A stretch of DNA of 57,819 nt, filler included, from Sphacelaria rigidula (lineage: Eukaryota), in NCBI GenBank assembly GCA_964200075.2. It is 9 parts of 9 records of this genome, joined end to end, with 100 filler letters (N's around TTAATTAATTAA, not from the genome) between each part and the next. Parts side by side here need not be neighbours in the genome. Positions count along the whole stretch, not along the records: positions 38,615 to 44,949 come from CAXNAA020020709.1; 8 more parts are not named here. One strand, written 5' to 3'. Position 1 is the stretch's first letter. Every line of letters starts with the position of its first letter. Below are positions 4,666 to 57,819 of this stretch, piece after piece. Under the pieces are notes generated by a model. That model was not told the DNA's origin. It ran no database searches and saw nothing but the letters and a program-made list of their open reading frames with translations. The position numbers and the translations under genes were made by a program.

Positions 4666-6336
4666 CTGTAAGTCAGCAAACGGGAAACATAAGACACAGG
4701 CAATGCACAACGACAACGGCCCCAGCACACGAACATCGACGTCGAGCCATCAACTCGCTCGGTGAACACACATCTCGTTCTTCTCGAGGTATTGTGCAAC
4801 CAGTTTTCACGGGTATTTGGACTCGAAGATTTGGTACGTGCAAATACCACGGTATGAAACCCCCCTGGAGACTGAACAGATGTTGCCTCTTCGACGGCGG
4901 AGGAAGCGTACACATGGAGTCACCATCCAGTGAGTGACGTATATTACGCTATTGCGAACGTGCATGACTTGATTCAAAGATACGGACGCTCACGCAGCGA
5001 AGATCAGGACGTGTTCGCGCTCACAAGGGTCAACCCGCCGTCCCGGGCATGCGGTATCCTCCTCATTTACAGCGTGAACAAGCACCAGTGTTGACTCGCT
5101 GCCCCTACAGGTGCCGCGGTAGAGGTTCACAAAACATTCGTCAGATTTGAGATTAGGAGTTTATTTATTTCACCGAAAGAACGACCCATAAAGTATGTGA
5201 GGGCAGACCACCACCACCATTTCAATGGGCCAGAGATAACTCGAAGGAATTTTAAAACAGGACTGTCCTTACCCATATTCTTGTGTGGCTCCCAACTCAG
5301 GGGTCTCTTAATGAGAAACATCTGGGCCCATATGTGCATTCCATGCAGTGTCATGAACCCCCCCCCCGCCCCCCCCCCCCCGTGAGTACGCCCCCCCCCC
5401 CGAGGGCAAAACCCATGCCGCAATAGGAACACTCCGCCTCCACAGATAGTCGCCGATACAGCACGTATCAATACCCGGACCCCCCTCAAACAATATCGTT
5501 TCGACTGTTCCGAGCTCCGGTTCTTGAAGGGTTCAAATTACTCACGGGTGAGCGTGGATCCTCCATCAACATGTGACATAAAAAACAAACCACCGAGTTT
5601 ATCGGCCACTGCCCAAGTATCCCCGCAAGATTTGAACGATTTACGCCCGCTGCTCGTCACAAAAAGGATACTAGTTGCCCATCGTTGCCCTTCCGGGGCG
5701 CGGAGGGGAAGGTGGCGTCTGGCACCCCTACATCCACGGTACTTTTTTTCTTGTCATGCTGTCAACCTATCTTGGTCCGTGGTCTCCAACGATCAACTCG
5801 TCTTTCCCCCGGTACTTGTCTCGCACAAAATTGCTGAGCATTGGATCTGCGCTCTTCCCCAGTCAGCCGACAATGATCGGTCTCCACGTACGTATTGTTC
5901 TGTCAACCCACGATAGTTCTCACGTATCCGGACCAAGCAAGGTAAAAGGCGGAACAACGAGACACAATGATACATAGTCATATATATATATATATATAGT
6001 GCGGTTCTGCGCAAGACCTTGTAGGGTGAAGCCGTGTCGCAGAGACAGGCGATTTCGTTCTGGGCTTTCTTTTCGTTTTATTTATTTTTTCCTGCTGTTT
6101 CATTTTTTGTACGTCCTAGTCTACTATGCCGTTCTGTTCGACTTTTTTTTGTGTCTCTTCTTTTTCTTTAGCGAGTATTTCAGTCTTCTTGTGTCTTGGG
6201 TACGTACGTCCATCATGCGACCACGGCTGGATCCCTGGGGGGTCACTTAAAGTGCGACAAATAAATCAAATCATATACTTCCTCTGTCCCACAAGTCTGT
6301 ATCGTTATGTTTGTACGAGCCCTTAACGATGTCCGA

Positions 6337-6436: not shown

Positions 6437-6573
6437 ATTGGCTAGAACGAACCCAAGCGTGGAAATTCCCAGCTTCTCATTGTGCTCGGCTTTTCCCATT
6501 TCGATTCACGTGAAGATTTGCACTCCCAAAACCATGCACTTTTGGGGGGGGGGGGCTATCGTAGAAAGTGTCT
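6437..6573. mobile_element. Truncated copy of the MITE seen intact at 45135-45390
   Basis: Ends in GGGGGGGCTATCGTAGAAAGTGTCT. Internal sequence matches the reverse complement of 45135-45272. Confidence 0.75.
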
Positions 6574-12872: not shown

Positions 12873-13160
12873 GGGGGGGGGGGGGGGCGGGGGGGGGGCG
12901 TACTCATTTCTTGCTTGCCTCAGTCGTTTGACCATTGACCACGCACCCCTTCCGACACGGAGCACCGTTCCTACTCCTGATAGAGACACCCCCAACATTC
13001 TGCCGCTCATTACGTTTCTTCCATACATTACGCAAAAACCTTGTACATACCCTATCCCCGTCCTGTTTCGCCGTCTGTGGCCATCATCTATCTCCTCATA
13101 AAGCTATCGTTCTCTCGCTCATGTTTAATGCATCAAACGATTCCATGCCACCTTTGTTCA
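12873..13160 (-). mobile_element. 3' end of the oligo(C)-tailed LINE
   Basis: Reverse complement matches the end of the contig-9 LINE (about 57590-57819) and continues ..GCAAGAAATGAGTACG into a C-run. Confidence 0.85.
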
Positions 13161-23146: not shown

Positions 23147-24198
23147 AGGTTTCCTTGTCGCAAGATATGACAGAAAGACAAGGCCCGCTTCTCGGACCAA
23201 CAAACGGCGTCTTTATGCCACTGTAGTAACGAGACACACGACAACATCAACCATCCCATCGACTGGGCAAAAATGTGCAAAACAAGTGGCGACTCTTAAT
23301 TTACCCATTCCATCCAAGTCTCTCACCGTCTTGCATGTGCTGTGGCTTCTGGTGCCGCCCCACCTCGTTCTTGTAAAACAACGACGTCACGGCTTCCCCT
23401 CACTGGAAGCGGTCTAGCAGGACACCATCCACTTTTCCCGTTGACGCGCCATCCAGCTCCCCCATCACGTGAGTGTCACAAAACACCGAGAGCACATCCT
23501 GCGCACCGTTAGAATTGTTTTTGACGGTGCGCGGGATGTGCTGTCGGTGTTGTGTGACACTCACGCGATGGGGCAGCTGGATGGCGCGTCGGAGGGGAAG
23601 GTAGATGGTGCGCTACTGGACCGTTTCCAGTGGGGGGAAGCGGTCATGTCTTTGTTTTACAAGAACGAGGTGGGGCGGCACCAGAAGCCACAGCACATGC
23701 AAGACGGTGAGATACTTGGATGGAATGGGTGAATTAAGAGTCGCCCCTTGTTTCGCACATTTTTGCCCCGTCGATGGGATGGTCGGTGTTGTCGTGTGTC
23801 TCATCACTACAGTGGCATAGAGACGCCCTCCGTTGGTCCGAGAAGCGGGCCTTGTCTTTCTCTCATATCTTGCGACAAGGAAACCTGAAGCGTGAGTTGG
23901 CGGGAAAAAATAGACGGTGCGATGCTGGACGTTTTCACGGGGGGTGGAGCTGTAATATCCATGATTGATTTGAATAAATCGATCAAATCTGGACCGTTTC
24001 CAGTGGGGTGAAGCCGTCATGTCCATGATTGATTTGAATCAATCGATCAAACCAATCATGAACATGACGGCTTCACCCCACTGGAAACGGTCCAGCAGCG
24101 CACCATCTACCTTTCCATCCGACGCGCCATCCAGCTACCCCATGACGTGTGTGCCACACAACACCGACAACACATCCTGCGCACCGTGAAAAAAAAAG
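23147..24198. repeat. Cluster of inverted copies of one repeat, forming long palindromes
   Basis: 23147-23511 is the approximate reverse complement of 23520-23886. Second hairpin at 23989-24095. A further partial copy ends in an A-run at 24190-24198. Confidence 0.9.
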
Positions 24199-27110: not shown

Positions 27111-27637
27111 TGCATGATGATATCGGTATCTGAAACTCTTCCGATAGAATTGTCTTTTCGGTGCTGGGGTTATATGCGCATGGCAAGCCCACCCAGTTTC
27201 GATGTGTTAAATTTTTCGTCATATTCCAAGTGTGGGGTGCAGGTCACCGTTTCGCAACTGCAATGTTGGCTCATGAATCATGCTAATCGTCTTGATAGGT
27301 GCAGTGTGAGTAAGACGCTACTTCCCTGACTTGATTGATTGAAAATATGATATAGGTGATTAGGTGTTTCAGTAGAGTACATAAATGTAGGGCACCGCAG
27401 AATATGGCTATGTGATCGATCGCCACCAGCAACATCCCAAACCTATACTCAGAAAAGTCATTTTATTGGTTCGATGATACCGTATGGCCCTATATTTTGT
27501 ACACAGTCGAGAGGGTCACTTTCCGTGAGCTTGGTGGGCTGTCCCCTGATTATAGTCCTAAAAGAGACAACCCGGGAGGTGCCGAGTGCGATTTTTCACT
27601 GCTTGTGGTATTGACATTTGAAAAAGTGAAAAAGCTG

Positions 27638-27950
27638 GCGGTGTACTCATGATTTTGCACGCCGTAGTCATGTAATCATTGACCTCGTATCCCTACAAAG
27701 CCGGGGCGGAGCGCGCCGGGTCCTCGCCGGACCAGGCTCGCAGTTACCAAGCGCGAAGCGCCATGCTGTGTTCGGTGAGTCGCATGAAGGGTGAGCTGCA
27801 TCCTACGAAGATTGTTCGGCACGGAGCGTACTGATTATTTTGCATTTGGATAACAGCTTCCAGTAAGTTGCTTCATTTTCAGCTGCTTCATTTTCTGGTA
27901 TCGCCAAATCACGAGACAGCCACGGTTTACACACTGCCTCATGGGTGTCA
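27638..27950 (-). mobile_element. Near full-length ~310-nt non-autonomous retroposon (SINE-like); other copies at 2543-2680, 36018-36130, 40010-40135, 40990-41203, 45050-45435 plus 51286-51322, 51329-51384
   Basis: Dispersed copies on six contigs share CATCCCTACAAAGCCGGG..GGAGC or GCATGAAGGGTGAGCTGCATC blocks. The 3' end aligns with the LINE 3' end. Confidence 0.85.
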
Positions 27951-28999: not shown

Positions 29000-30890
29000 C
29001 ACCTACGTGGCGAAAGAAGTGGGGAAAGGAGGCAGAGCACCAGAGTAGGTACAAACACACACCAGGGAGCACCGCAGAACCGCCCACCCAGGACAAATCA
29101 ACAGACAATGGGGACAGACAGGATCGTCTGATTTGCGGCTCTCGACGCAGCAGCCTCTCGTTTGTGACGGCGGTCCGATTATCGGTTGGCTTAGCGTCGC
29201 CACGTGTCTTCTAACTCTTTCCCCTCTTTCTCGACGCCAAGATGCCATTTGCCCATGTCCTTCGCGGCTGTGACCCAGTCGTACGTATCGTCAACCTCCA
29301 GACCGTAAACGCACCATTTCCGTTGCGCTCCTTAATGCGAACAGGCCCTAGTGCACGTAGGTTCTCCTGGACGTGATCCTCCCAATGTTTTGGGGGGGCG
29401 ACCAGCCTCTATGGGCCCCGGTGCGGTTAACCGTACGTGCATGCGTTCGTGAAGGCATGTTTCCTTCTGCCGGGCAACGGCTCCCGCAAACCAGGGTTGC
29501 CGTTTGCGGATAGTCGTCTTGATACGCTCGCAGTTGATCATCTCGAGCATGCCTCTGTACGAGAGAATCTTGTAGTCACTTCGACCTTCCCTGCGGAATT
29601 CGACCACTCGCAGTAAAGCTTGTGATAGACAGTGTACAGATTGTCGAAGTCCTCAGAACGTAACGTCCATGCAGCACATCTGTACAACAGAGGTTCCACG
29701 ACCTCCGCTTTAAGCACCCGAACTTTTATGGATAGCTGGGCGTTGGGTCGACCGTATAGTTGGTAACTATATTCTCGGAGACATGCTCGCGATGCGCCGA
29801 TGCAGCTGTTAATTTCGATGGACATTGTTGCACCCGCGCTGACATCATTACCACGTCAGTCTTCTTGTGTAGCACTTTGATAGTTACATATTTCCATTCG
29901 TGAGACACCTCAGAGTCATGCTACGATAGGGGGGGGGGAGTTTGGGCCGTTTTCTTCCACGAAATTCCACTTCAATCGCCGTTGAAAGTAGCCAACAGTT
30001 GTTCAAACGCGCTCGCTGCTGATGAAAAAGCTCATTCATGCTGCTTTACACCGCTTGTATCCGAATACAAGCGCACCGCGAGGATTTTAGGTCGTTTGCC
30101 GCATCCATGAGCACATTTTTTCGTGGAATGGCATCTCCCCCCCCTATCGTAGCATGGCTCCTCACCAGATGTCCAGATAGCAGCGACGATGAGGAAGTGA
30201 TACAAAATATCCGACATCTCCTCGTTCAGTCCAAACTTCAGGATTCCAGCCGGTGGACCATCCGGACCCGTCGCTTTGGCGTTCGACGTAGCTCTCAGAG
30301 CCTTCTCAGAGTCACTTGAGCTTGACAGGTCTCCTAGTGACAGCGCTATCGATCGTTGCGCAATCTGCTCTACTGCTGCTCCGTCGATGGTTGCCAATAT
30401 GGAGATACGTAATGTGGAGAAGTGCCGTTCCCATCTCTCACGGATGAAGTCTTTTTTTCTCACCGTATATTCCCGTTCACCGTATCTTCGCGTTCTCGTC
30501 TGCAGAATATATGCTTCTAGCTCTCGACTTGTTGTCCTGACAGTCTCCGCCCTACTTTGAGATATCTGTACCACTCCCTCATGTCCCCACTCGACCATAC
30601 TCCTCCAACTCTCTAGCATAGACATCCGTGTATCTGTCCCCTCCAACACGGAAAACCTCTTTGTTTTTTTTTCGGACGCTGCTCGCAATGTGCGCCGTGC
30701 GGGTTTATCTCGCGATGGTCCCAGTTGCACCGTCAATCTCGCCCTTTCCCCCTCATTCCAGGCCTCCTCGAACTCCGTTTGGACGACCGCTGTTGAAAGT
30801 CTAGGCTTATGTGGTGCTGTCTCACTGGGCAGACTGGCAAAGGTTGCACAGTGGCTGTCAAGCTCTTTTGCGACGTGAGCGGAGAACAAG
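29000..30890 (-). pseudogene. Degenerate RTE-like LINE reverse transcriptase region with an internal deletion
   Basis: Fragments ERWERHFSTL, KATGPDG, IWTSGEVSHEWKYVTIKVLHKK, KVRVLKAEVVEPLLY..AAWTL and IRKRQPWFAGAVAR, with stops and frameshifts. Confidence 0.85.
29913..30160. mobile_element. MITE with GAG..CTC termini and 4-bp TSD (CTCA), inserted in the LINE
   Basis: TIRs GAGTCATGCTACGATAGGGGGGG / CCCCCCCTATCGTAGCATGGCTC. Removing it restores the LINE frame IWTSGEVSHEWK. Confidence 0.88.
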
Positions 30891-35884: not shown

Positions 35885-36939
35885 CATCCGACCTAGTCAA
35901 GCCCGATCAGACCCGCAACTATAGGTCCCGGATTTTATCATAAACGCCGTCTAGCCTCATGGCGGTCGGAGGTCGGGAGAGGGAAAAAACGAGACGGCGG
36001 GTGAGAGGGAGCGGGAAGGGGGGGTCGTACTCCTTAAATTGCATGTCACAGTCATGAGACCATTAACCTCGCACCCCTACAAAGCCGGGAGGGAGCACGC
36101 TGGGTTTTCGCCAAACGAGGGGAGATATGTTTGGTCGGAGTTCGAGCTCACCCCGGATATCGCTCGCATTTTCTATGATCCCACAAGGGTACATCAGGAT
36201 TGGAAATGACCAACCCCAACCCCCTACGAACCCCCTTTTTGGGCCCGAGATTTTTAACAAAAACACGTAAAATGTTTTTTCATTCGTATGTTGCCGTAAC
36301 ATGCCGCGTTTGTCTCGAGACTAGGGCTTGAGGTGCCAAGCACGTTTGTGCGCTGGAAGGTGACATTAACAGTGTGTGTGCGAGATGAATAAACGTGTAG
36401 GGGGACAGCGGGCTGGGGGGGGTGGGGGGATAATATTCCGTTGACCCGAGTCACTTCCGACGAATGCAGTCGAATGGTTTTTGCTGGGGACTTGTGTCAC
36501 TTAGTTGCAACCCATCGTGCACTCTTGTTCATGTTTAAAGGCGCAAGCAGCAAGCATGTCTCGCGACATTTACCTGGCAATTTTCTTGCGCTGACCGCCG
36601 TGAAGGTTGCGGCTACTGCAACCGAGCCAAAACTTGTCTGACCCGCAGTCACTCTCGACTTTAGTAATCGCAGTCGACATTGGCATGGAGCGTGCGAGCC
36701 TTGGTGTAAGCTGCTGCATAATTGTGTTGATCGTCAGGAGACGCTCATTGGCAAGCAGAAAGACTACTACGCGAGCAATATCCAAACACTGTTGTGCATT
36801 ATACATTCGTGAATAAGCTAAGTTGGAGACCCTGTGTGGTATACGCCATCCGCACGACTACCTACTTAGACTACAGAGGCCTTCAATAATCACAAGCGAA
36901 CCGCCTTTTTGCGTGCCTCAAACGTCCACGCTGGCTTTT

Positions 36940-37680: not shown

Positions 37681-38452
37681 ACTTAGCCTCAGCACCGAGT
37701 TAAAAGGAAATGGCACTCTGGCGAATGCATTTTCGATACGTCCAAAGGTGATGATATGTGAAGTGTGTGAATTCAGCGTGCCAATCGTGTGCCAACAGTG
37801 TTGTAAGCTCTGTTTGACGGTGCGGTAAAACGACAAACGCACTAGTGTAACCACCACAACTATGCTGCAGCTGATTTCCAGAAAGGTGCTAGGTTCCGCG
37901 CTTTTGTCCACACGAATGTTTGCTGCCTTACTTATCCGAGTTCATGTCTGCGGGACAAACTAAGACAAGGAAACCTGAACATGTGCCCCTCTTCTGTTTC
38001 TTTTCGGTAAGGAAGAAATGCGAAACCAGTTACGCCGGTACGGTAAACTACATCATGTACGCACGCGAGTGAGTAACGAGAGCAATCCAACTAAATTTAG
38101 AGTAATCCTGTTTGCTTGCCAACAGGAGACAGTAAGTTAGAAACTACACAGCTCGGATATATAAAGGGGCATACCTCGCAGTCGTGTGTTGTATTCCAGT
38201 CTTGAATAGCTTGCGCAAGATGTCCCTTCCTCGTCAACAAACACGACGCATGCTTCGCTACTGCCGCCAACCATGAGCTCCGCATGAACGACGACGGAGT
38301 CGGTCGTGGCGACCGCGCGCCCGGGCAAAATTCCGTTCCTTTTGAGCCCCATCGCTTTGCACGATAGGGTAGTTTCGGGGAGCGGGACGGGGGATGTTCA
38401 GCGCATAGCCCGAACACGGAAAGCGCTCGACTGGTGAGCCATGCTGCGTTAG

Positions 38453-38514
38453 GGGGGGGGGGGCGTACTCATTTGTTGCTTGCCTTAGTCGTTTGACCAT
38501 TGACCACGCATCCC
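38453..38514 (-). mobile_element. 3' tip of the oligo(C)-tailed LINE
   Basis: G-run followed by CGTACTCATTTGTTGCTTGCCTTAGTCGTTTGACCATTGACCACGCATCCC. Confidence 0.85.
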
Positions 38515-39149
38515 NNNNNNNNNNNNNNNNNNNNNNNNNNNNNNNNNNNNNNNNNNNNTTAATTAATTAANNNNNNNNNNNNNNNNNNNNNNNNNNNNNN
38601 NNNNNNNNNNNNNNGAAAATGGGAAATCGTCAAGTGGAAACCCCACTCAAATCACAAGTACTTGGGGGGATTTTACGGCGTGCATAATCAGGGGATGAAC
38701 GAGATCTCCGGTCTGTTCGTGCTTTTGGTCGGTGACACTTTTTTGGCTCATTTTGGGGGGTCAGGCGCACCCATAACTGTCTCACCGCTTCGTTTTTTTT
38801 CAATTTACGTGGCGAAGTTCAGTGACATTGCTTTTTGTCCCATGCATATATATTTTTGTGCTCTGATTACGTGCTCGAATTGCTGGCGCTAGGCAGCTAG
38901 AATTTACCGCGATTTTGAATAGATGTGAAGCCAAATGGCGTAATTTTCTTCCCTCCGGCGGGGCCCCCTCACCAGCTGGGGGGGGGGGCGTTTAGGCGAC
39001 TCCGCCGCGTTGCCTTACCAGGCAACGCTGGCAGAGTCGCGAGGCGCCTTCGCCGCCAGTTATCCAATTTCAACTGGTGGTTGTAACTGGTCATAGTTTC
39101 CTGGAAGCAGTTACATGATTAGTCTCACCAGTTCAGAACTCTAAGTAAG

Positions 39150-39548
39150 ATACACAGAATTGCCCCTATGGGCAATCAAATAGGGAGCAAAAGTCATATA
39201 GTGGCAGAATGTGAACTGTACAAGGAGAAACGGGGATATGCTAGAGTGGGAAATGCGGGAAGTGAACAAAGGTGGCGTGAAACCGTTCGATGCATTAGAC
39301 AGCAGCGAGAAAACTATGGCTATACTAGGGGATAGATGGTGGCCACAGACTGCAGAAGAGGCCGGAGATAAGATGAGCAAAAGGTTTTCGTGCAATATAT
39401 GGAAAAACCATAATGAGCACCTAAATGTGGGAGACGTCTCCATCACGAGTAGGAACGGTGCTCCCTCTCGAAAGGAATGCGTGGTCAATGGTCAAATGAC
39501 TCAGCAAGCAACAAATGAGTACGCCCCCCTCCCCTTCCCCCCCAGCCC
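39150..39548 (+). mobile_element. 3' end of the oligo(C)-tailed LINE
   Basis: Homologous to about 57480-57819 (GDRWWPQTA..RNGAPSRK). Ends GCAACAAATGAGTACGCCCCCC. Confidence 0.88.
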
Positions 39549-40824
39549 GAAGAATTTTGTTCTGCCTCGAGTTAAATGTAGTATAGGGTCTCGATATAAC
39601 CAGGTAGTGTATGTGTAGACTGTTGATTCTGGGTGATCTGTTAGGCTGGTGGTTCGTGAACCCGTCTCAAAACGAATCCGTCATCATCCATGTCCCCCGC
39701 TTCTTCTCCCCTCACCGCGTCAAGCACTGATTGCCACGGGCTAGCTCTAAATACTTGGATACACTCAGCAGCGCTCAATAAACACTCGTCAGTGCCCACG
39801 AAGTGAGTGATGCTACGGTAGGGGTTCAACGTTTCAGCCAAACGTTGTCTAAGGTTGCACACTATTAACCCAGATGTTCCTCATGGAGGCGCTCCTCAAC
39901 TTGGGAGCTTTTTGGATGTTTTATGCACCCCTGCCGTGGCACTGCCCAAGTCAAGTGGAAAATCAGGATTCCGGAACAGTGACTGTGCGGATACGTCACC
40001 TTTTGTCCTACCCCGCCCTTCCCCCCCGAGCCCGGTCCGGCGAACACCAGGCGTGCTCCGTCTCGGCGTCGTAGGGATGCGAGGTCAATGTTCATATGAC
40101 TACGGCATGCAAGATCATCAGTACACCCCCCCCCTTCCCGTTCTTCCCAGAGATTCTCCCTACGCGTTGTGTGGTTGATTGATTAATTCATTGTCGCAGT
40201 TTAACTGACCCCCCAGGGGTCCAGCCGTTGTCTCACGATAGACGCACCCTGAAAAAACGAAACTGCAACACGCTCTGAAGAAAAGAAAAAACAGGGGGAA
40301 AATGCAAAAAAAAAAAAGGCGGAACAGAACGACATCGCTGTGTGTGTGCGTTTTTTGCTTTCATGTTACATAACCTAACTCCCCGTATGAGCATGCCGAA
40401 ACAAGTGCGGAAAGATTGCAGTTTACGTGGAAACTGCCCCACCTTGAGAGGAAATGGTGCCGGATTTTGTTTCCTTCACACACGTGGGCGATCCCGTCCC
40501 GTTTCACCCCCCGAACGGGTCTGACGGTGAGCCTCATACCGAGTCCATCAGCATGGGTACGGAGGGCACACGCGCTTGAGTTTCACGCGAGTTTTAGAAA
40601 ATGAGCACCGAGAGGGACGGAAGTCGAAGGGCTAGAGGGGTGCTGATCGATTGCTTCATGACAAGGTGCAAGGCAAGGACCCGGCGCGAGGTGAATTGAT
40701 ATCTTGAAATCAGGGACTTGCCCTGAGGACGACGGGGGATGGCAGAACGTACACCGAAAACCACGAAGTACGAAACTACCCCCTCCCACCGACCCGCCTA
40801 TTCCCTATTTATCGGCATGTCAAG

Positions 40825-40921
40825 GTGACATCTTCGCGGAAGTGATCAGCCAGGGGACGTACGAACATACACCGGAGGAACTTGTGTACGGTGCGAAGGT
40901 CTGCTGGCGGAACAGCGCAAA
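40825..40921 (+). CDS. NOS: Nitric oxide synthase oxygenase domain, exon A
   Basis: [31 protein letters not shown](K) matches the NOS motif EI..TGTY.(H/L)T..EL..GAK.AWRN. Donor AA|GTAAGG, phase 2. The acceptor position (AAG) is less certain. Confidence 0.9.
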
Positions 40922-41477
40922 GTAAGGATACAGGGAAGAGTGGGGGGGGGGGATTGAGACTGTAATAATCTTACATACCGTTGTCATAATACTACTGACC
41001 TCGTATCTCTGCAAAGCCGGGACGGAGCACGCCGGGTGTTCGGCGTGTCGCATGAAGGGTGATCGACCTCGTGCTAAGATTGTTCGGCCCGGAGCGTACG
41101 GATTGTATTGCATTCGGATGGCAGCCTACAATGAGGTGCTTCATTTTCTGGTATCGCCAGTTCCAGAGACAACCACAGCTTACACACCGCCTCATGGGTG
41201 TCTCACGATGTAAACGCTATGTAGAATGATCATCCCCTTTGCGCGGAAGTGAGGTTCCCCATCCCACACAATATGGTCCATCTCGACCACCATCATGGTG
41301 ACAGCAAAAAAAACGCAAGGGCGAAGAAAAAGGGAGTGACTTTGTTGCCTAGCTTACGCAGTGTGAGGCATGTTTTACAGCGTCATTGCCAACCGACGCC
41401 ATCCCCACAGGAGTACGTCCCTACAACGCGGGAACGGAGTACGCCGGGTTTTCGCCGGTGAAGGAGGGGGGGGGGGG

Positions 41478-41541
41478 CGTACTCATTTGTTGCTTGCCTT
41501 AGTCGTTTGACCATTGACCACGCATCCCTTTCGAGACGGAG
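41478..41541 (-). mobile_element. 5'-truncated LINE insertion with ~21-bp TSD ending in a G-tract
   Basis: CGGTGAAGGA(G)12 at 41456-41477 and CGGTGAAGGA(G)11 at 41542-41562 flank 64 nt of LINE 3' end. Confidence 0.9.
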
Positions 41542-42427
41542 CGGTGAAGGAGGGGGGGGGGGTATGTTTCGATGGGAAGGAGAAGGAGAGTAAAGGGCCC
41601 TTGCTCAACCTGAACGTTCCCGACATAGCTGATGGAGGCTTGTAGAGACTCTGAATAAAGTGGAAGACCTCGAGGGAGGACGGTGATCATCTTGATAGTT
41701 TCTGGCGGTGACTTGGCCTTTCATGTTCCCCTATGGTTCGCCTTAGATCTCCTAACGCTCAGCCATGCGATCGTGTTGCTTTCGAAGGAGAGTGGAGCAT
41801 TCATTGGGCCATTCGTGCACACATCAATAGAAAGTAGTTTTGCATTTCTGCGCAGTATTCGTCGCCTCCTCACCCCGTCTTGCTTCGTCGATACACTCAC
41901 AAATGGTTGTACAACGCCATGCAGCGATGAGAGACAGCGTTAATAAACGTGTCTGTATGCAGAGTAGATATGGATGACAAATAGATCCGTTGTTCTGCTG
42001 CTTGTTCGTAGCTGCCAATGGCAGAGGCGCGTCTGTACGGTAAAGCAACACTACGCTCACGTAAAGTTGAGGTGACATTACATGCAATGGAGGATCGGCG
42101 TATGTTCATGCTAGAGAAGATGCTCGCGTACATCACAGCAGTTGCGATTAACGGAGTGCACCACGTGCAAAACACGCCGTACGCTCGTCTTATCTTGAAA
42201 GCTGTTCGGATTCCACGAAAACGACTTTCTCTGTACACGCTCAACATTCACCTGTCCATGTCGACAAAACAAAGTGCTTTTACTTCAAATGACAAGGGTT
42301 CCAAGGGAGTGTCGGATGGCGTATACCCAATATTGTTGTATTTCGAAAAGTGGAGATCCGACCTATGCCACGGCGCAGCAGCCAGCCCAGTGCCATCGTT
42401 CTCCTCTCTAAAGCCCATACAAGTCAT

Positions 42428-44579: not shown

Positions 44580-44949
44580 CCGACGTCTCGGAGACCCGCG
44601 CCTAGACACCGGGATTAAGAGATGTATCCTGATGAACGTGATCGTACCAAATAAGGAATATCCAGGAGAAGTATGAGAGGGAAACGCGAAGTTGGTGAAG
44701 AGGTTAGAGCCGTACAGATGGCAGCAGCTAAGAAAATACTTGAAACTCGAAAACGACGAGTAATACAGTTTTGAGAGCAGAGTTGGGAATGTACTCACTT
44801 AAAACAGAGATTTGAGGAAATTGCAATGGCAGTATAGCGTAAAGAACATGCAAAGAAAGGGATGGCCAGCTATAGTTGATAGGGCTGTATGGAGGAAACG
44901 TACGATAGGGCAGGCTGGAGTAAGGTGGGATAGAGAATTCGAAAAAGTG
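44580..44949 (+). mobile_element. Internal LINE fragment
   Basis: Aligns by eye with 56815-57180 (NVIVP..EY.G.VWEGN.KLVK.LE). Confidence 0.8.
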
Positions 44950-45435: not shown

Positions 45436-48400
45436 TGTACAGTAGTCCATCTACAGTACACATGCAACAAGTAGACATGCGGGGGGTCCTGGATTTGGTT
45501 GGAGGATGACTATTGGATGCGTAACATATCGTGATCGTGAAGCAAGCCCAAGAAGCTTACTTCCGGTTTAATGAAGACAACTGTTTGTAAAACTGCTCTG
45601 TCTTGAAGTCTCGGAAGCCCTGCTGGGGAGGAAGCCTTTGGAGCAAGAACTTAGATCTTGTTCTGATCCCAGACAAGTCTACAGTGAACGTTTACTCAAG
45701 AAACTTGTGGTTTCTGAACAGCGTCGCTGAACCCTAAAAAAAGCGAGGACGCTCGTTGGACAACACGGGGGTAGTGCGACGGAGCACGGAGTGCAGGAAG
45801 CGTTCGAAAGATGGCGCGAGCGAAAGTGAGCAGGGAGTCTAAATCTGACAAGGAGGGGGACGGCGCAGAGGTGAAGTTCACTGTAACGAATTTGATTGCG
45901 GGGCGATCGCTCAAGGCGCCTGAATATGGGCGCTTGTTCAGTGAGCAAGCTTCGCGACGGTTTCTGCAGAAATATCAGGAGTACGAACAAGCCGTTCTGC
46001 GACGAAACAAGACTCGAACTGTGGAGAGCGCACCGTTGGCCATGGAGGAGCTAGTGCCTCGGCATGTACAAGGTTATTTGTTGGACACTCTTTTTGATGG
46101 CACTGAGTTTTCTCACGCCCGGATTAGGGAAGGGATCGCACGGCATGCGAAATGCTGGGTAGGAATGGAAATTGATCCAAATGAGGCCGCAGCCGGTGTG
46201 AAAAAAGCACTCGCTGCACAATCCGATTCAACTGCCATGCGTCGAGTGGAAGGACAGTGGAGTGCCTTGCAAGAATATTTCAAGGAGAATGAGGGTTCAG
46301 AGCGTGTTTTCCGCGAAACGGACCGTACCTATTAACCAGGCCCGGCACACATCATCACTAGAGGTGTGATTGCTGGCCTGACCCCTCCGGAATTCAAACA
46401 TAAAGTCCAAAACAAACTGCAAATGACGGGGGGGGTGGAAGGAGCAACCGAAACTTGTGTACGATGTCGCTCTTGAGGTGGCGGAACTGTGGCGAACTGT
46501 CGGGGAGGTTGACAAGCAGCGCAGATCCGCTCCACAGAACAAGGAGGTGGGTTCGCAAGGACAGAAGAAACTGTCGACGGCAGCTAGCGCCGCAGCCGCG
46601 ACGGTTGTATCCGGTGATAGCGGATCGAAATCCAGACAATCTCGCAGACCCGGCCCTGATTACGCAGTATGTTTCGAATATGGGGACAAAGGTCATTTTA
46701 GGAAAGACTGTGAGAAGAAAAACATGCCAGCAGCTACCGGAGGTGGGGATAGTGGACACGTAAAGCCGCAGCAACAACAACAGCAAACGGCGCAAGCTCC
46801 GCGGGGCGGGAGCCAGAATCCTCCCCCTACCCGGGCTGTTTTTCCAGGGGATGGTCGTCAAGGGGGCACTAACGATGCTGGTAGTACGTTGCGACCCGTG
46901 CCGACTGTTCCGGCTTCTATAGTACAGCCTCCGCCGTCAACAGAAACAGTTCCGCAACGGACATCGGCGGCAGTGCCGGCGTGGCGGGGCTTACACACTG
47001 CTTCCGAGGTAGCAGAGCTGGAGGCCGAGGGTTTGGACGTGGAAACTAGGCAGCAATGTTGCCGAGCTGATCTATCTGTTCCAGGTTCCGCCGTAGAGAA
47101 AGTCTGTCCGGTCAAGGCTGTGTTAGACTCTGGAGCTAGAACAACCATTATGTCTGAACGGGTGGCGACCCGGTTGAGAAACGCGTTTCCTGGAGTATCA
47201 ATCGTCACATCAATGGCACGTGGACACCCTGTACGACTGGCTGACGGTAACGTAAAAACCATGCACTCCAAAACGTGTCTGGTTCGTACGGCACTCCACA
47301 CGAGCTGGGGGTCGGCGGTGCTTGAGCCCTGCCGGTATGCGATAATGCCCGGCGCTGATGATGTGGTTATTTTTCGGAGCAAAACTTTGGCAAAAATCGG
47401 CATCAATATCTACAATGATCTGGGCGCATGCGCGCAAGCAGAACACCCTTATTTGCGGGGTATCGAGACGCCTGAGTTCCGCGAGTGCAGGCGTGGGAGT
47501 CTAGCGGTGGAGGAGCTCCAGGAGACGACTGGTCACGAGGAACCGGTGGACTCCTCTGTCGAGCGACTGGTGTCACGGGATCTGGATATGTTTATGCCAC
47601 CAGAGCAAGAGCTTGTTGAGCGCAAAGTGGCGCTTGAGGACGCGGTACAAGCTGCGGCGGATAATGGCATGTCGGAGAACGGGGTGAGCAAGCTCCGAGA
47701 AATTGTCGGCCGTCGGACCAATGTTTTTCGGCGAGCGTTGCGAGGTGACCCGCCTGCTCGCGTGGAGCCTTCGCATGTACGCTTCAAACCGGGGGCTAAA
47801 GCAGTCAAGGCGAGCCCGAGAACATACTCTCCAGTGAAGAAGAGCTGGTTGGCAGGGTGCATGGCTACGCTGGTGGTGCTGAGGTTGGAGTTCCGCAACA
47901 TCCAGGCGGTATGGGCAAGCGCAGTTATGGCTGCGCCCAAGAAGGGCAGCTATTGTCTGGTGAGTGATTACAGAGCAGTCAACCGGCAGCTCGAGAAGGT
48001 TCCCAGTATTATGCCGAATCATGAGAGGGAAATGGCCGATTTGTTGGGTGCATCGTGTTTTGGGAAGCTTGAAATGCTACAGGGGTACTGGTAGATGCCG
48101 CTAGCGGCTGAAGCCCAGGAATTTTTCACCATTGCGTCTCCCGACGGACCTTTCACCCCCACGAGGGTGCCGCAAGGCGTGCTCAACGCTAACGGATATT
48201 TTCAACAGATACTGATGGGACTGTTGGCTGGACCCGACTGCAAGGTATGGGTTGGTGATATTTTGTGGTGGGGGAAAGATGAGGATGACTTGCTGCGCAC
48301 GCTGGACGCGATTTTGGGCCGATTGGAGGACGTTGGTCTGTTTGCTGCTGGGCACAAGTGCATGTTTTATGATACGCAGATCACGTGGTGTGGGAAGGTT

Positions 48401-51285
48401 TTTTCAGGTGGACAGGTTGCTCATGATCGCGACCGATTGACCGGATTAGCCAATATGCGTCGCCCACGTACGGCGGGTGAGCTGATGCAGTTTTTGCAGG
48501 CCGCCAATTGGCTGCGAACATCTCTACCGCGTTTGGCAGAAACGATGGAGCCGCTGCGTGAGCTGTTGGAGGAACATCTGCGGAAACACGTCCGCCGCAC
48601 TAGGCGAGTGGCGTCCAACCGGATATCGAAGATTCGGCGTGGACATTTCAGCGGGGTCAGGCGTGGCATGCTGCTCAAGATTTGGTGGCGCATGCTGTCG
48701 CTTTGTCGTATCCGAAGGAGGCGTATGAGGTGCTGATGTTTCCAGATGGATCGAATCTACATTGGGGCAGTTTTTCTACGCAGGTGCCTGCCGCTGAGTT
48801 GGATGGGCTGCTGGCGGTGGAAGACATGAGACACGAGCCGATGGGTTTCTCAATGGGACTTTTCGTGGGGCATAAGTTCGACGGGCTACGGTGAATAAGG
48901 AAGGCTACGCCATTGTGAGTACATTCTGAAGGTTAGAGTATTTGCTGTGGGGCGGAGTGCATATTATAACTGATCATCGTAATTTGGCATACATTCTTCA
49001 TCCTGAGGCGTGCGTGGCATCGTTGTCTAAGACTGCTGCCCAGAGACTCGAGCAATGGAAGGCTGTGCTCGGGCAGTATGATTCCACTATCAGGCACATT
49101 TCTGGGGAACGGAACTGCTGGGGAGACTTGCTATCAAGGTGGATGAATGTGTCTGTCCGTGCTCTGGCGGTATTCGCGAGTGGTGAGCTGGATGACACAC
49201 CACCGTCAAAGGACGACATTCGAGCAGCTCAAGAGCGGGCTCGCGCAGGGTTCGGGGTGATGGTTGATGGAGCTACCTCGTTTACTGCCGCTTTGGGCGC
49301 GTTCCGAAAGACGGTGAGGGCTTGCTTTGCGTGCACGTCGCAGATAAGCATGTGTTGTGGATCCCGCAGCAAGACAAAGAATTGAAAACACGTGTGATGG
49401 TGTGTGCCCGCATGAAGGGGGCGGGCCACCGCGGGGTTGTGGCCATATTGCAACGATTACAGGAATACTGCTGTTGGTACCAGCTGGAAGCTCACGTTAC
49501 CGATTTCGTGAAAAAATGCTTACACTGCATGGATTCGAAAGCTGGGGAGATGGTCCCGTGACCGCTAGGGGAAACCGCTCATGGTACACGGCCCGGTGAG
49601 GTGGTGCACTTCGATTATCTATACGTTGGTGAGAGTGATCCCTTGGGCAAGAGCGGTTTGGATGAAGGCGGTGGATACGAGTACATTTCAGTGATGATGG
49701 AACATCTGAGTAGTTTCGTGTGGTTGGAACCTACGGAATCTTGCACGGCTGCCTTGACGGTGCAGCATTTGTTGACGTAGTGCAAAGCTTTAGGCCCACC
49801 GGAGGTTTGGGTTAGTCCGCGTCGCATTTCAAAAACCGTGTGATGCGAGCGCTAGAAAAGGCACTGAAACTGGACAAGAGGTTCACAATCGCCAACTCGC
49901 CGTCGTCCAACGGGACGTGTGAGCGGATGATGCGAGAAGTTGTCCGTACTCTGAAGGCAATGCTCCAAGAGGAGCGGAGCGATGTTCGTGACTAGGTGGG
50001 ACTGGTGCCTGCGGTGCAGTGGGCGTTGAATACGGCATTCCGCGAGCGATATGCCAGTACCCCCTACCATGTAATGTTTGGACGCGCGCCGCGCACGAGA
50101 TTTTCGACACTGGCCTCGTCGACCGGCGGCGACTGGCGACTTGATGTGCTGGATGAAGACAGGCTGCGGCAGAAGGTGGCGTCAGTTGTTGAGGCGCAAC
50201 AAGAGCTGCATAAGGAGGTGGCACAGCGCGTGGAGAAGACCCGTGAGTTACAGCGACGTGTTGCCAGTAGGGGACAGTTGCCCAATTTTATGGTTGGTGA
50301 TAATGTGTTGGCGGCGAGAGTTAAGCGTTCCGGCACAACGCCTAAACTCGTTAGTACGTGGACAGGAGCGTGGAAAATCGTGGCAGCGGGGCATCAGCAT
50401 GTGTACGATATTCAGAATATCGTCAACGGAAAGGTGAAGGACGCGCATGTCGCCCGATGGTACTGAGCGGACAAGGAGCTGCAGGTCACTGCAGATCTGA
50501 AGGGAGTGTTCCAGTATGCGTTTGCTCAAGGAGAGTTCGAAATGGAGGCGATTATTGACTTGCCCAAGGCTCAAGACGACGATGGGTTCGTTGTACACGT
50601 TGAATGGGTAGGTTTCGGCAAGGACGAAAGCTCGTGGGAGCCACTGGAAACCATTTTTGAAGGAGCCTCGCAATTTGTACGTTCTGAATTGCGTAAGTTG
50701 TGAAAAAAAAGAAGGTGCGGGCGCGTTTGCTGGCTAAGTATGGGCTCAAGCTCTGATTAATTGGGTTTCAAGCTGTGATTGGTTGTTGGCGTAGTTCGTG
50801 GATTCTACTATGCAATTTGGTGTTCGATGAGTGTACCGCTTGGTTATTGTTTGCCTAACATGTTGGAGTAGCTCGTGCTGGTGTTTTAGGATTATGCTAG
50901 GGGGGGCATCGTGATTTGACCTGATGCGGTCTGATATTGAATGCTTGTCTCTGGTTGACGTCGTAGGGTACTGTCAGTGTCTACTGTTTTGTCAAATTCG
51001 CTTTTTACTTCGAGTAGTGCAAAGTTTTGGAGGGTGCTGTAGAGTAGTCCACCTATAGAATACATGCAACATGTAGATATGCGGGGGATCCTGGATTCGG
51101 TTAGGGGATGACTATTGGGTACGTACCGTATCGTGTTCGCAAGGAAAGCCTATGAAGCTTACTTCCAGTTTAATGACGACAATTGTTTGTAAAACTGCTC
51201 TGTTTTGAAGTCTCTGGAGCCCTGTTGGGGAGGAAGCCTTTGGAGCAAGCACTTAGATCTTGCTCTGATCCCAGACAAGTCTACA
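45436..51285 (+). mobile_element. Full-length decayed Ty3/Gypsy element with chromodomain (LTRs 45436-45683 and 51038-51285; TSD GACA)
   Basis: Two 248-bp TG..CA LTRs, roughly 87% identical by eye. Domain order: gag with knuckle CFEYGDKGHFRKDC, protease AVLDSGA, RT (DYRAVN, PQGVLNA, VWVGD), RNase H (TDHRNL), integrase (GHRG..C.HC), chromodomain (VEWVGF..SSWEP). Confidence 0.97.
45811..50755 (+). pseudogene. gag-pol of the Gypsy element
   Basis: ORFs 45811-46335, 46457-48094, 48095-48736, 48942-49561, 49996-50466 and 50506-50703 are consecutive pieces broken by stops and frameshifts. Confidence 0.93.
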
Positions 51286-52249: not shown

Positions 52250-55200
52250 ACCGGGAGTCTCACGACCTCCACACTTATCTTCGTTACATATATAAGAACC
52301 GCGCATTTGTTTACGTTCGCTGTCACTCTCCATTTCCTTGTGTAAAATATCGAAATATTTCGATTTTTCTCCGTCCTGCATCATAGCACTTTTCGCACAT
52401 TATATCCTCTTCTTCACCATTCTCCACATCTTTCCTCTGGTCTTAGTTTCCCACATCTTTTCTACAGCCTATTTTTCCATGCTGCGTTATAGGCCTTTTT
52501 AATGTTTAGACATAAATAGTTCATCTTCAGCTCGACGTCTTTCCTACGTATAGCCTCTGCCAGACGATCTGGACAAGAGAACTTTCAACGAGGGACTCCT
52601 CAATTATCACTGGCCTCGTGCTCGACAAGTCCTTTCTTCGAGCCTGTTAATATCACGGAGTGATCCTCAACAGATCACCAGTCAGATAGTAAGGGGCCAC
52701 ACAGGAATGGGCCATCGATGCGGGATCCCCTGTCCCCTGCCACTGCTCCAATCATTCATGCGATTACAGTATACCGAAACCCTACGGCTTGGTACCATTT
52801 GGCTACAGCACCCTCAAAGCCAGCTCAAGACAAACGATTTTCACCGCTTTGCTGCATTGTAAGCACGCTGCACAGGTCTGCTGCAGCCCGCGCGCAATAC
52901 CATGTTTGCCGCCGGTTGTGGTGTACCCGGCATGCTGCTTCACAGGATCTAGCAATTCCTCGGAGGTCATATATAGTTCGACGGTACTTGTACATGCCTT
53001 CAAAGCACCGATGAACGTATGTAGGGATGAGTTGTCCAATGCTCATCCTTGCATGCCTTACACCTCCTTGTGCATTTGCTAGGTACAAACGCTCTTCGTA
53101 ATCGAGACAAGCGGCGTAAAAAACGCGTGATGCTTCCTCGGTCCACACCTCGCCACACTTTGGCTTTGGGTCTAGCGGCTCACCCAAAACCAGCGGCGCT
53201 GCCGCCGCTTGAGCCATGTCCTCTAGGACTCAAACACTTCACGAGGAGACTCTTGCCCGACTTGTATGTCCTCCAGCATGGCTGTGCGCTTCAAGCTGGT
53301 CTCCTTCCGCCTGCGGGCCAAACTGCTTCCAGCTGCGGTCCCTATTCCTCAGTCAAACTCCTCCAACAGAGCGCCGAGAATAATATTTAGATATTATAGC
53401 CTCTGCCAGACGATCTGGAAAAGAGTACTTTCAACGAGGGACTCCTCCAGCATCACTGGCCTCGTGCTCGACAAGTCCTTTCTTCTAGCATGTTATTATC
53501 ACGGAGTGATCCTCTACAGATCACGAGTACAGACAGCAAGGGGCCACACAGAAAAGGGCCATCAATCCAGGATCCCCTGTCCCTGCCAATGCTCCAATCA
53601 TGCATGCGGTCATACTGAAATCTTACGGCAAAGGTACCATTTGGCTACATACCCCACCTTGAATAACCTTACGTAATGTGTACCAGTACACATGGTCTAC
53701 CCAACTACGATTTGGTCTAAAACCTGCTTGTTCCTCGTTGATTCGCTGTTCCTCCTCTAGCATCGTTTCCGCCCTTTCATTCAGAATCTTACCGAATGGT
53801 TGCCCTACGGTGCTCAGTAGCGGTATCCTTCTCTCTATAATTTCCTGGGTCAGCATTGTCTCTTTTCTTGAAAAGCATGACTACTACTCCTTCTGTCCAC
53901 CTGTTGGGTGTGCACTCGTTATCCCACATTCAGTCCTACAGGATAATCACCATGGTAATCATCCCCTCTTCCCCGGATTTCGGAAGTTCATGTACTATTT
54001 GGTCTGCCCCTGCTGCCTTTCTGTTCTTGAGTTGACCTACACACTCCTTCACTTCATCTCTGATTAAATCTCTCTGCAATCCTTTGGAGCCACTATCCTC
54101 CCGCTTTGACACCTCTGCAATTGCCTCTGCCCACGAGATGATTTCTTTGTCAAATTTCGTGCCAAAGTTCTTGTTAGCTTTTGGTCTTTCTCGTTTACGG
54201 TAGTGCTCTACTAGTACCTCTCTCGTCCCCTTCGAACTACCAATCAGTTTACTGTTCTGCACCCGTAGTGTGCCTATACTCTTGTCTATCTCTCCTGTTT
54301 GCCCATTATCCCTATTATCCCTCCCCATATTTGCTTCATCTCGCCATCGGAATCTCCGTTTGTTTTATCCACTACATCTTCCCATCTTCCCCCTTATTTT
54401 TCTTCTCTTTCATCATGTTTACTTCCTTTCCGGCTTTAGCACACTCCTCTCATCCTACCGTAATATTACTCGATTTGATATTGCGTGGACCTCTCTCCTT
54501 ACTCTTGTAGCCTCTTTTTTTACTTCCTCACCCCACCATTTTACTGCTCTGTTGCATACGATCAGCTTTTTCCCTATGACCTTACTTGCTGTGGTCTTGA
54601 CCAGTTGCCCCCATCCTTCCATAACCTTCGCTCCTGCCCGATCCCTTTCCATTTTGGTATTAACTGTACCTACTCTATCCAACAACTCGGACAATTTGCT
54701 GTTGTTCTTGTATTTGTATGTTATCTACTTCATATTCTCTATGTGTACAAATTCCTACCCCGCCTATTTGTTACGGCTTTCGTCTCTTGGCTATCCGTCC
54801 ATATCAGGCAATGATCTATATTTCACACGTCCTCTGCGCATACGTTTACTTCAATTTTCTTGCCATTCCCATGCTCTACCACCACTATATAGTCAAAATA
54901 AACCTTCCTGTTTTTTTTGGTTGCGCTGTCTAGTCCATGTATGTCGCGTCTCTGGTTTTGTGTTATATCGTTCAGCGTCTTCATCTCGGTATGCTCGAGG
55001 AACTTCAGCATCTCTAGCCCGTTCGTGTTCTCCTTATCTCCCGCATATTCCCCAATGATATCATTCGGTTTACTTTCTTTTCCAAGCCTTGCATTATGAT
55101 CTCCCATTTATGTTACTTATCCTTGCCTTTCATACGCATGTACATCTGACGTTATCTCTCGAAACCTCCTCTATATATCGTCTACCGTGCTCTTCGATTC

Positions 55201-56290
55201 TGGGGGCATTTAAATGTTCCCTACGAAAAGGCTTTCGTTCCCCGCTCTCCTGGTACCGTAGTCCATATGATGTCGTCGAAATTTGTGTCGTTGATTACTC
55301 CTATGATGTCACACAGGCATTCCTTGACTAAGAATCCTACTCCCCCCGCCCCCCTGTTCCTGGGGCTCTGTCCTTTTTGCTTTGCCGTTATCCATGCCCA
55401 CTCTCTAGCTTTGCACCCTATTTCCGCCCCAAATGTTCCCCATGACTCTTAGACCCCTATTATATTCAGGTCACGGTTACTTACTTGTTCGGCTACCTCT
55501 ATTACTTTGCGCTCGTTTGCGGCGAATCTACACACGTTCCACGATCCTATCCTCACCTTCCTTTTCGAATCATTATCCACTCTCCTTTCATCGACTGTTC
55601 TAACTCCGTCGTTTTGACTTATATTTTCCCTTGCTTGATTCCTCTCCCCGTTTTCGGATTGCTCTCTGTCTGTTTGCATTGGGCCGCAATTTCCCCTTCC
55701 CTTTCCCTTCCGGGTACTACCTTGTTCCTGTTTCTCCTATCCTCCGTTTATCTGCGGGCAACGTCTTTGGTTGCTGTTCCATTGGATATGCATAGTCTCC
55801 ATCCTTCCTTCCTAACCCATGCCGAGACCTTTCTTGTCTGTCCTTTCCCACTCCTTACTCGCGCTCTGTTTTAGCGCGACTCGGAAGTGTTATCTCTCCC
55901 TTTCTACTTTTCCTGTTGCCAAACAATGTAGTCCTACTTCATCACTTTTCCTTTCAAAATCTATTCTCGTCATATCGCCACGGACTACGAATACCAGCAC
56001 TACTAGAACTTTACCCAGCCACTCTCTACTTCTCCATCCACTCTTCCTTACCGCCTCTCTCTCGATCTCTTTGGAGAAGATCTTCAGCTTGTTTGATTTA
56101 AGGTTCAAAGTGGGATGTAGTCAAGGTACTGGGACATCTCAATCCTAGTACTTGTTGGGGGTCTGGTGTCTTTCAGTTCTTCAGCTGGCTCACCCACACT
56201 AAATGATGCCTCCAACGCGGGCTCGTAGCCGGACGCAAGTACCCTACGTCTGTGCCAAGCGATCTGCATGGTAAACCATCCAAGTGTCCC
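52250..56290 (-). mobile_element. Degenerate APE-endonuclease LINE (endonuclease plus partial RT), interrupted by an LTR element
   Basis: RIGSWNV, MGDHNARLG and DYIV (APE); KAAGADQI and QAGFRPNRSWVDHVY..LRKVIQG (RT). RT resumes below 52545. Confidence 0.9.
52549..53649 (-). mobile_element. Internally deleted Gypsy element (LTRs 53649-53395 and 52807-52549) retaining only the gag N-terminus
   Basis: Direct repeats of ~255 bp. ORF 53217-52825 resembles the gag start at 45811 (EEASRVFYAACLDYEERL vs EQASRRFLQKYQEYEQAV). Same GAGGGTGC before the 3' LTR. Flanks TACG/TACC. Confidence 0.88.
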
Positions 56291-56344
56291 ACGATCGTAT
56301 CTTCCACCTTCTTGCCCCGCGGCTGTACTGGTTATTTTCCTCCC

Positions 56345-57819
56345 GAAGGTTAGACAGGGAAATATCGAAGTATTTTTATATGTTAAAAGGAGTTGCACAA
56401 GGATGTACGTTATCACCCACTTTATTCAAGGTATTCATTAATGACTTGATACTAGCAATAGAAGCAGCAAAGCAAGAAGTCAAGGTGGGTAAAGATGTGA
56501 TATCAGGTTTGACGTTCGCAGATGATTTCGTAGGGATTTCAGGAACAGCAGAAGGACTGCAAAAGCAAACAGAAAAAACGCTAGAACACTAGGAAGTGGA
56601 GAGTAACAGCGAATGCCAACAAATGCGCGGTACTCGTCTGTAACGAAGATAAGAAAAATCCGGTAGAGTCCAAGTGAAAGTGAGGAGAAGAGGAACTGCC
56701 GATTGTAGACCAGTTTGCGTACCTTGGCGTAGAGATATCAAAACACTGTTCTTGGGATGCACACGTGAACAAAGTAATAGAAAAGGGTAAGGCACAGATA
56801 GGCAGGATGTACGTGACCCTCAGAGATTCGCACGTAGACACTAGGAGTAAGAGATTTTTCCTGATAAACGTGATCGTACCAAAGCTGGAATATGCAGGAA
56901 AAGTATGGGAGGGGAACGTGAAATTAGTGAAGAAGTTGGAAACAGTGCAGATGGCAGCAGCTAAGAAGATACTTGGATGCTCGAAAACGACGAGTGATAC
57001 AGCACTGATAGCAGAGCTGGGAATGTACCCACTTGAAACAGAGACATGAAGAAATTGAGATGACAATATAGCTTGAAGAACATGCAGAGAAAGAGACTGC
57101 CAGCTATAGTTGATAAGGCTGTATGGAAGAAAAGTACGAAAGGGCATGCCATAAGGTGGGATAGAGAAGTCGAGAAAGTATCGAAGGAGATAGGAGGAAA
57201 CCAAGACGAAATACTGTCCAGAGGTGCAGGCGCGGGGTACAAGACAAAAGTAAGAGACACGATAGGAATAAGGGGAAAAGGAGTGCTCAGACGTAAGGTA
57301 GACGAGCGAAAACACCTGGAGATATACGGGGGGTTGAAAGAGGGGATCGCAATGAAAACATATTTGCATGGCCCCATGGACACTGCGAAAAATTTGAAAA
57401 TGCGATGTCGGGTGGGGGACCTGGACATGCCAGAAAGAAGAAAGAGACTTACCAGTGGTAGAGTGGAGGAGGAGGTGAATGGTCAGAACTGCCTCTGTGG
57501 CAGAGCAACAGAGAGCAGAAGTCATATTATGGCCCAGTGTGAACTATACAAGGAGGAACGGGACGCGCTAGAGGGGGAAATGCGGGACGCGAACGAAGGT
57601 GGCATGCAATCGTTTGATGCATTAGGCAGTAGCGAGAAAACGATGGTTATATCAGGAGATAGATGGTGGCCACAGACGGCGAAACAGGACGGGAATAATA
57701 TATGTAAACGGTTTTTGTGCAATGTATGGAAGAAACGTAATGAGCGCCGGAATGTTGAGGGTGTCTCTATTAGGAGTAGGAACGGTGCTCCGTCTCGAAA
57801 GGGATGCGTGGTCAATGGT
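56345..57819 (+). mobile_element. 5'-truncated LINE: RT C-terminal half and Cys/His C-terminal motif
   Basis: GVAQGCTLSPTLFKVFINDL, FADD, YLG and CLCGRATESRSHIMAQC. Runs into the same 3' sequence as the oligo(C)-tailed copies. Confidence 0.93.

Follow-up and report, generated by a model that had tools for sequence, protein, structure and literature searches.

At positions 41456-41562 of the window, the 57,819-nt stretch of Sphacelaria rigidula DNA that was analysed, a 64-nt LINE 3' end on the minus strand lies between two copies of CGGTGAAGGA followed by 11 or 12 G residues, which confirms the arrangement given in the preliminary description (Table 1). The stub carries the last ~19 codons of the ORF, the stop codon (41483-41485) and a 3' UTR of 5 nt, and it spans nearly all of the conserved 3' module of the element. 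Base 41542 is compatible with the target-site duplication (TSD) and the LINE alike, a 1-nt microhomology. Two features had been overlooked: the target of the stub is the 5' C-run of an older copy of a non-autonomous partner family, and a length of 64 nt is a recurrent size class.

Table 1. LINE and partner-family features in the window (positions of the whole stretch)
Feature	Position	Strand	Remark
64-nt LINE 3' stub	41478..41541	-	98.7% identical to the end of intact L244 (over 77 nt, stub plus tail)
TSD, 3' copy, CGGTGAAGGA+G12	41456..41477	-	includes C12 run; tail and target inseparable here
TSD, 5' copy, CGGTGAAGGA+G11	41542..41562	-	C11 run + 10 nt
LINE 3' fragment (~260 nt)	12873..13160	-	C-rich tail; contig edge
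LINE 3' end with C12	38452..38514	-	cut by contig end
LINE 3' fragment (~375 nt)	39148..39543	+	C-rich tail, interrupted
Long degenerate LINE copy	52274..57819	+	cut by window end; PF00078 at 56275-56589
Internal LINE fragment (RT region)	44587..44948	+	reaches contig end
Older near full-length partner copy (~500 nt)	40942..41458	-	C11 run 40942-40952; 78-81% to L165
Partner-family 3' module with C8	19309..19389	+	
Partner-family copy (~310 nt)	27637..27950	-	
Partner-family 3' fragment with C run	36018..36112	-	
Partner-family 3' fragment with C9	40027..40134	+	
Partner-family 3' end with C10	51330..51380	-	contig edge
Possible 8-nt LINE-end stub (5383-5390) between C runs	5358..5401	+	length too small for proof

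A local duplication or an assembly artefact, and not a TSD, might have produced the repeat on the two sides of the stub. The assembly is fragmented (27,214 contigs), the flanks are of low complexity, and no joint that skips the stub, as an empty allele would, is present among the 15 of 936 joints listed (contigs of X1, X3, X4 and X5 over 39000-42400, where repeats dominate). On the other hand, 10 unique bases are identical on each side of the stub, the same layout recurs at 32 of 91 ends genome-wide compared with 1.4 by chance, and contigs of run X1, possibly the source sample, span both junctions. An artefactual origin is therefore considered highly improbable.

Since the window consists of contigs joined by N spacers, two of the four 3' ends cited earlier (12873 and 38514) abut contig joins, and the sequence beyond 12873 and on the 5' side of the 38453 copy is unreadable. 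The three cited ends other than that of the stub proved to be real: two show G-runs (12873-12898 and 38452-38463), and the third has a C-rich run that starts at 39524. In the long copy at the end of the window, the 5' part with the APE region is inverted (52274-56350), and the RT and C-terminal part is in the sense orientation (56357-57819); such a 5' inversion is as expected from twin priming, and the inverted and sense parts overlap. The same copy is broken by an insert of ~1.1 kb between direct repeats of ~260 nt (52549-52807 and 53395-53649).

The partner family is 570-577 nt long, is 78-84% identical to the LINE end, and is represented genome-wide by 2,909 exact matches of its 21-mer. Its homology with the LINE starts at the point where the stub is cut, and it has no upstream mimic of the 3' end. 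At its start, the partner (L165, L186; 41418-41458 in the window) repeats ~50 nt that also immediately precede its own 3' module, and so has a short terminal direct repeat.

There are 30 C/G runs of at least 8 nt in the window. By a conservative rule, at least 8 of them are tied to the LINE family, 7 lie in MITE ends and 15 are unassigned; the earlier suggestion that this family may generate many of the homopolymers thus holds in part. The MITE-like repeat in question (29915-30160; also at 6544, 8133, 32214, 45153 and 45364) carries C/G runs within its inverted ends, and these ends serve as targets for the LINE and the partner. Elsewhere in the window lie a broken Ty3/Gypsy-like LTR retrotransposon (46427-49500), whose aspartyl protease and RT Pfam matches are weak and below the cut-off, and an imperfect palindrome of 740 nt (89%) at 23147-24196 with smaller inverted repeats nested inside. 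Short exon-like frames occur on the minus strand at 13700-14300, upstream of the LINE piece at 12899-13160, and may resemble a C2-domain (copine-like) gene.

The LINE, its C-run ends and their targets

In the intact copy L244, the longest ORF has 1382 aa and matches PF03372, PF14529 and PF00078; it runs into the same LINE end, with a tail of C13. Copy C22147 of this genome joins APE, RT and the LINE end. The endonuclease model (pLDDT 87.8) adopts the APE fold, with L1 endonuclease structures among its top matches. The assignment to the APE-type LINEs made in the preliminary description is thereby upheld. The nearest named proteins are those of Ectocarpus (52-65% in the RT region), with which the RT of this LINE groups at a support of 0.999. 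These homologues, together with an EsV-1-7 domain found in the genome, agree with a brown-algal host. As judged from broken copies, the element is ~5.1 kb long plus a variable 63-bp tandem array at its 5' end, compared with 5.5-5.9 kb for RTEX-1/2_Ec32; an array of this 63-bp unit is seen in the 5' region of L085. Records labelled prokaryotic (G001 = L241-L270, L243, L244) are rich in LINE copies and therefore seem to include binned host DNA.

In the 244 Mb of the genome that were searched (27,214 contigs), the exact terminal 21-mer of the LINE occurs 3,557 times, and its reversed control 0 times; the family therefore comprises at least 3,557 ends, counted as exact matches. The base after the 21-mer is A, G or T in 164 of the 3,557 and C in the rest. 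For a sample of 75 ends at 70 loci, taken on large contigs from the first 100 places listed, 61 have at least 7 C within the next 10 nt, compared with 1.9% of random positions. Among 30 fetched ends that do not continue with C, none begins a poly(A) (A5), and 21 are C-rich within 14 nt. Across the family, the ends are thus mostly (C)n, with no poly(A) at those examined, and the poly(A) tail and A-starting TSD of the L1 clade are not features of the algal LINE. Among 50 pattern matches in metagenomes, four contigs, all marine, carry the LINE end with its C-run; the other 46 and both viral matches are unrelated to the LINE. Query P0009 found no relatives in viral or metagenome contigs, alignment A2 found none in viral contigs, and one degenerate pattern had no match in genome contigs.

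TSDs were examined at 105 ends (75 LINE, 30 partner), 91 of which were usable after removal of contig edges and N gaps, and a TSD was called anchored when it contained at least 3 non-C bases. Anchored TSDs that start in the C-run were found at 32 of the 91 ends, compared with a mean of 1.4 in shuffled pairings; under a stricter rule of exact TSDs, the count was 17 of 65 compared with 1.6. The claim that the TSD begins in the C-run consequently holds genome-wide, and the bias of TSDs toward G/C tracts is present under both rules. The remaining 59 ends have no anchored TSD, as is expected in part from age and low complexity. The TSDs reach from the C tract 3-13 nt into unique sequence, and the distance from the end of the element to the end of the TSD has a median of 18 nt. 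The targets pre-exist: several copies occupy a C-run at the end of a MITE, and the window also contains this MITE end without an insertion; many copies sit inside the tails or TSDs of earlier copies. At the 5' junction of L005 (contig C35), ~10 extra bases stand between the TSD and the stub, and we take them to resemble telomere-type repeats.

The lengths of the C tracts bear on whether the LINE RNA itself ends in C residues. The 3' tract exceeds the 5' tract in 16 copies, falls short of it in 14 and matches it in 2 (median difference +0.5, p=0.46). Targets with at most 4 C gained in 6 of 6 cases (from 3 to 14, 3 to 14, 2 to 19, 3 to 7, 4 to 10 and 4 to 5). At targets with at least 13 C, no 3' tract exceeds the 5' one, and the shortest have 2-4 C; in L005 and L178, the 5' tract has 20-21 C and the 3' tract only 2-4. 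These lengths fit a short tail of approximately fixed size, with nicks anywhere in the run, and they also fit slippage on a very short tail. Alternatively, the RNA may have no real C tail and end no more than 1-3 nt from the last conserved base, with the endonuclease alone selecting the target and with the surplus C residues arising from primer slippage or later homopolymer drift. The absence of a net 3' excess and the short 3' tracts of L005 and L178 agree with such a tailless RNA, but the gain of up to 11-17 C at targets with 2-4 C does not, and in a distant relative (described below) the (ATT)n repeats reach past the TSD match; on balance, a tailless RNA is unlikely. From the geometry of the insertions we infer target-primed reverse transcription (TPRT) primed by the G-run, and in this respect the geometry is the one that the preliminary proposal of G-tract priming predicts. 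The other part of that proposal, a C tail on the LINE RNA, is partly supported by these sequence comparisons, with the six short targets in its favour and no net 3' excess.

The 3' module and the 60-70-nt size class

The last ~67 nt of the LINE make up a module in which two hairpins are predicted. A scan of genome contigs with alignment A2 returned 31 loci, many of them in G001, whose megabase contigs are labelled bacterial and are read as host DNA because they are rich in LINE copies. In the G001 family, identity over the RT and C-terminal region is 34-36%; the module is retained, and the element terminates in ATATT(ATT)n. For 7 of its 25 ends, a TSD was found that starts with AT and is at least 9 nt long, compared with 0.3 in shuffled pairings, the count including one duplicated locus. 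Because the same module is joined here to an (ATT)n tail and AT-starting TSDs, the tail appears to be tied to the target.

When the algal LINE, the partner, G001 and L243 are compared, both partners of the pair have changed at 2 of the 5 pairs of hairpin 2, and 95.6% of its cells are paired, a figure that covers 9 distinct rows from four lineages, counts related rows and does not amount to a probability. With four different loops, hairpin 1 still retains 3-7 pairs. A closing helix of 6 pairs in the algal families has 3-5 pairs in the distant lineages and shows no covariation. The folding energy of the whole module is not better than that of shuffled sequences (z -0.68 to +0.33). The predicted fold changes with the context: 80-nt pieces favour an upstream hairpin (probability at least 0.9 in 4 of 6), and 67-nt pieces the closing helix (probability at least 0.89 in 4 of 6). 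On the protein side, the C-termini of the distant proteins P0014, P0017, P0022, P0032, P0036 and P0043 end in a similar short peptide, which is probably the read-out of the conserved RNA module. The beta-hairpin loop of the endonuclease differs between the algal and the distant proteins, and L1 hairpin-exchange structures are among the structural matches of the endonuclease model; in L1, this loop steers targeting.

The stubs are cut at the 5' edge of this module. Among 65 usable LINE copies, 36 are 60-70 nt long, with a peak at 65-67 nt, compared with 0 of 27 partner copies in the matching 60-75-nt range (Fisher p=6e-8). Genome-wide, the 21-mer at the start of the module occurs 3,241 times and is preceded by the next 9 upstream LINE bases in only 519 cases (16%); these 9 bases are present in 9 of 14 long copies. 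The stubs carry no diagnostic base and agree with the LINE in majority sequence and in its C/T loop polymorphism, and they are less diverged than the long copies (2.8% versus 8.3%, p=0.003). This gap may arise because assembly bias under-represents young long copies. A weak signal of such a size class is seen in G001, where approximately 3 independent copies out of 45 matches have lengths of 63-66 nt. No clear 66-nt peak is seen in the copy lengths of the Ectocarpus 'family171' among the 30 of 43 rows listed in the part of the source that was available (PMC12477816).

Several origins of the peak or of the module were tried and rejected. A generic stop at the closing helix is rejected as the sole cause, since the partner has the helix and no peak. 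Assembly bias is rejected as the cause of the peak because the partner is under the same bias; it may still contribute to the stub fraction and to the divergence gap. A tRNA-like or SINE origin of the module was rejected as well, as ARAGORN found 0 genes in the window and there was no Rfam match at E up to 10; a third arm is seen in the partner and is absent from the LINE.

Two origins of the stubs themselves have to be weighed. One is that they derive from full-length LINE RNA, through a stop of the RT or a cut of the RNA at the edge of the module, the first six bases of which are predicted to be paired, in the long RNA, with an upstream mimic of the 3' end and not with the true 3' end; a cut of the RNase P type at this edge is speculation. 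The majority sequence and loop polymorphism of the stubs, the context-dependent folds described above, the lack of both mimic and peak in the partner and the short G001 copies are all in line with this origin. However, the folds are predictions, the G001 signal is weak, and the lower divergence of the stubs speaks against it; we give a derivation from full-length RNA an even chance. The other is that the stubs are a minimal non-autonomous family of their own, recently re-amplified from stubs. Lower divergence fits such a family, tandem-like joints are present, and contig ends at 41542 enter the G-run in X1, X3 and X4 and the LINE in X5, which bears another organism label (agreement ~0.43). Against it, the stubs have neither a 5' flank nor a diagnostic base in common, no tRNA or Rfam match would supply a promoter, and a shortage of young long copies in the fragmented assembly could alone yield the divergence gap. 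A separate family of stubs is accordingly a possible but doubtful origin.

Proposed mechanism and relation to known elements

Based on the results presented above, the stub is very probably a TPRT-type insertion, truncated at its 5' end, of a brown-algal LINE that has a single ORF with APE and RT and is of the RTEX-1/2_Ec32 kind. Its 64-nt size places it in a preferred class of LINE insertions. In such an insertion, the ORF protein would bind the ~67-nt structured module at the 3' end of the RNA (two hairpins, probably with a short closing helix), and the APE domain would nick the G-rich strand within the G-run or at its 3' edge. The freed G-ended strand would pair with the short C tail and prime reverse transcription, and a second nick ~18 nt away would give rise to the TSD. 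For the 64-nt class, copying would halt, or the template would start, at the 5' edge of the module. Every insertion would duplicate the C/G run and may lengthen a short one, and would therefore provide new targets for the LINE and its ~575-nt partner.

A bolder interpretation, which we regard as distinctly unlikely, is that the LINE RNA closes with an ancient recognition module of ~67 nt that is self-contained and can switch its fold, and that the tail acts as an exchangeable address. As long as the module is part of the long RNA, its first bases would pair with upstream sequence; a cut or trimming at the module edge would let them pair with the 3' end instead, and an RNA of tRNA size would result. 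The C residues might be copied from a template, result from reiteration by the RT or be attached by a nucleotidyltransferase. Such an RNA would have been retroposed by the thousands and would be among the smallest LINE-dependent elements. One module would then bear a (C)n tail in brown algae and an (ATT)n tail in a distant host, with the target following the tail.

Human L1 has a poly(A) tail and uses a T-tract primer, and the T-run lies 5' of the nick on the primer strand; the G-run is placed likewise here. The algal LINE resembles human L1 in the APE fold, in a homopolymer at the primer end that matches the tail, in 5' truncation and in the 5'-inverted copy in the window. It differs in having C/G for A/T, a 5-nt 3' UTR, a tail that is on average no longer than the target, and a sequence-specific structured 3' module inside the ORF.

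The closest known elements are from Ectocarpus, where RTEX-1_Ec32 is described as 'single EN-RT ORF; (C)n 3'', RTEX-2_Ec32 as '(C)n termini/TSD' and the TSD as 'C-rich' (PMC12477816, in the part available). The same source gives RTEX-N1 as 604-607 bp with '60 bp 3' end 83%'. The likeness of RTEX-1/2_Ec32 and RTEX-N1/N2_Ec32 thus extends from the single EN-RT ORF, the (C)n 3' end and the C-rich TSD to a partner of ~600 bp that has its last ~60 bp in common at ~83%, compared with 570-577 nt and 78-84% here. On these four features (single APE+RT ORF, (C)n 3' end, C-rich TSD and ~600-bp partner), the algal LINE may be filed with the RTEX-1/2_Ec32 kind (RTE-X), an assignment made by likeness to a published description. 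The host genome is different, and the accessible part of PMC12477816 gives no TSD statistics, nick geometry, RNA structure or ~66-nt class.

In RTE-clade LINEs and SINEs, the LINE and its partner have the 3' end in common, as here, and the first base of the TSD follows the 3' repeat; the tails given in the part of that source available are (GTT)n, (CAA)n, or T- or A-rich, with TSDs that start with T or A, whereas both are C in the algal LINE (PMC6007223). Chlamys Penelope-like elements also insert at (C)n repeats, but they have a GIY-YIG endonuclease, in place of the APE found here, and an RT of another class, and according to the portion of the source available their TSDs are often not discernible (PMC8557442). 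The novelty that the preliminary description implied for the C tail and the C-rich TSD is therefore not supported, since both are already annotated for RTEX-1/2 of Ectocarpus and (C)n targeting occurs in the Chlamys elements as well. A literature search, with Repbase reports, most subscription papers and some supplements outside its scope, returned no account of G-primed TPRT, of the module structure or of a ~66-nt class, and no match for a cut at the 5' edge of the module or for a relative of 34-36% identity with the module and an (ATT)n tail. The C-tail trait is already known from Ectocarpus, and the ~66-nt peak takes in about half of the sampled copies.

As far as the accessible part of the source goes, the (C)n trait is catalogued for Ectocarpus in a supplementary table, with no mechanism attached (PMC12477816). 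The two relatives described here, with one 3' RNA module, opposite tails and different endonuclease hairpin loops, constitute a natural experiment that allows a direct test of whether the tail or the endonuclease sets the target choice of a LINE. The ~66-nt class, present in the LINE and absent from its partner, offers a handle on the cause of 5' truncation. For the genome of the alga itself, the LINE family accounts for part of the C/G homopolymer load and of the contig breakage.
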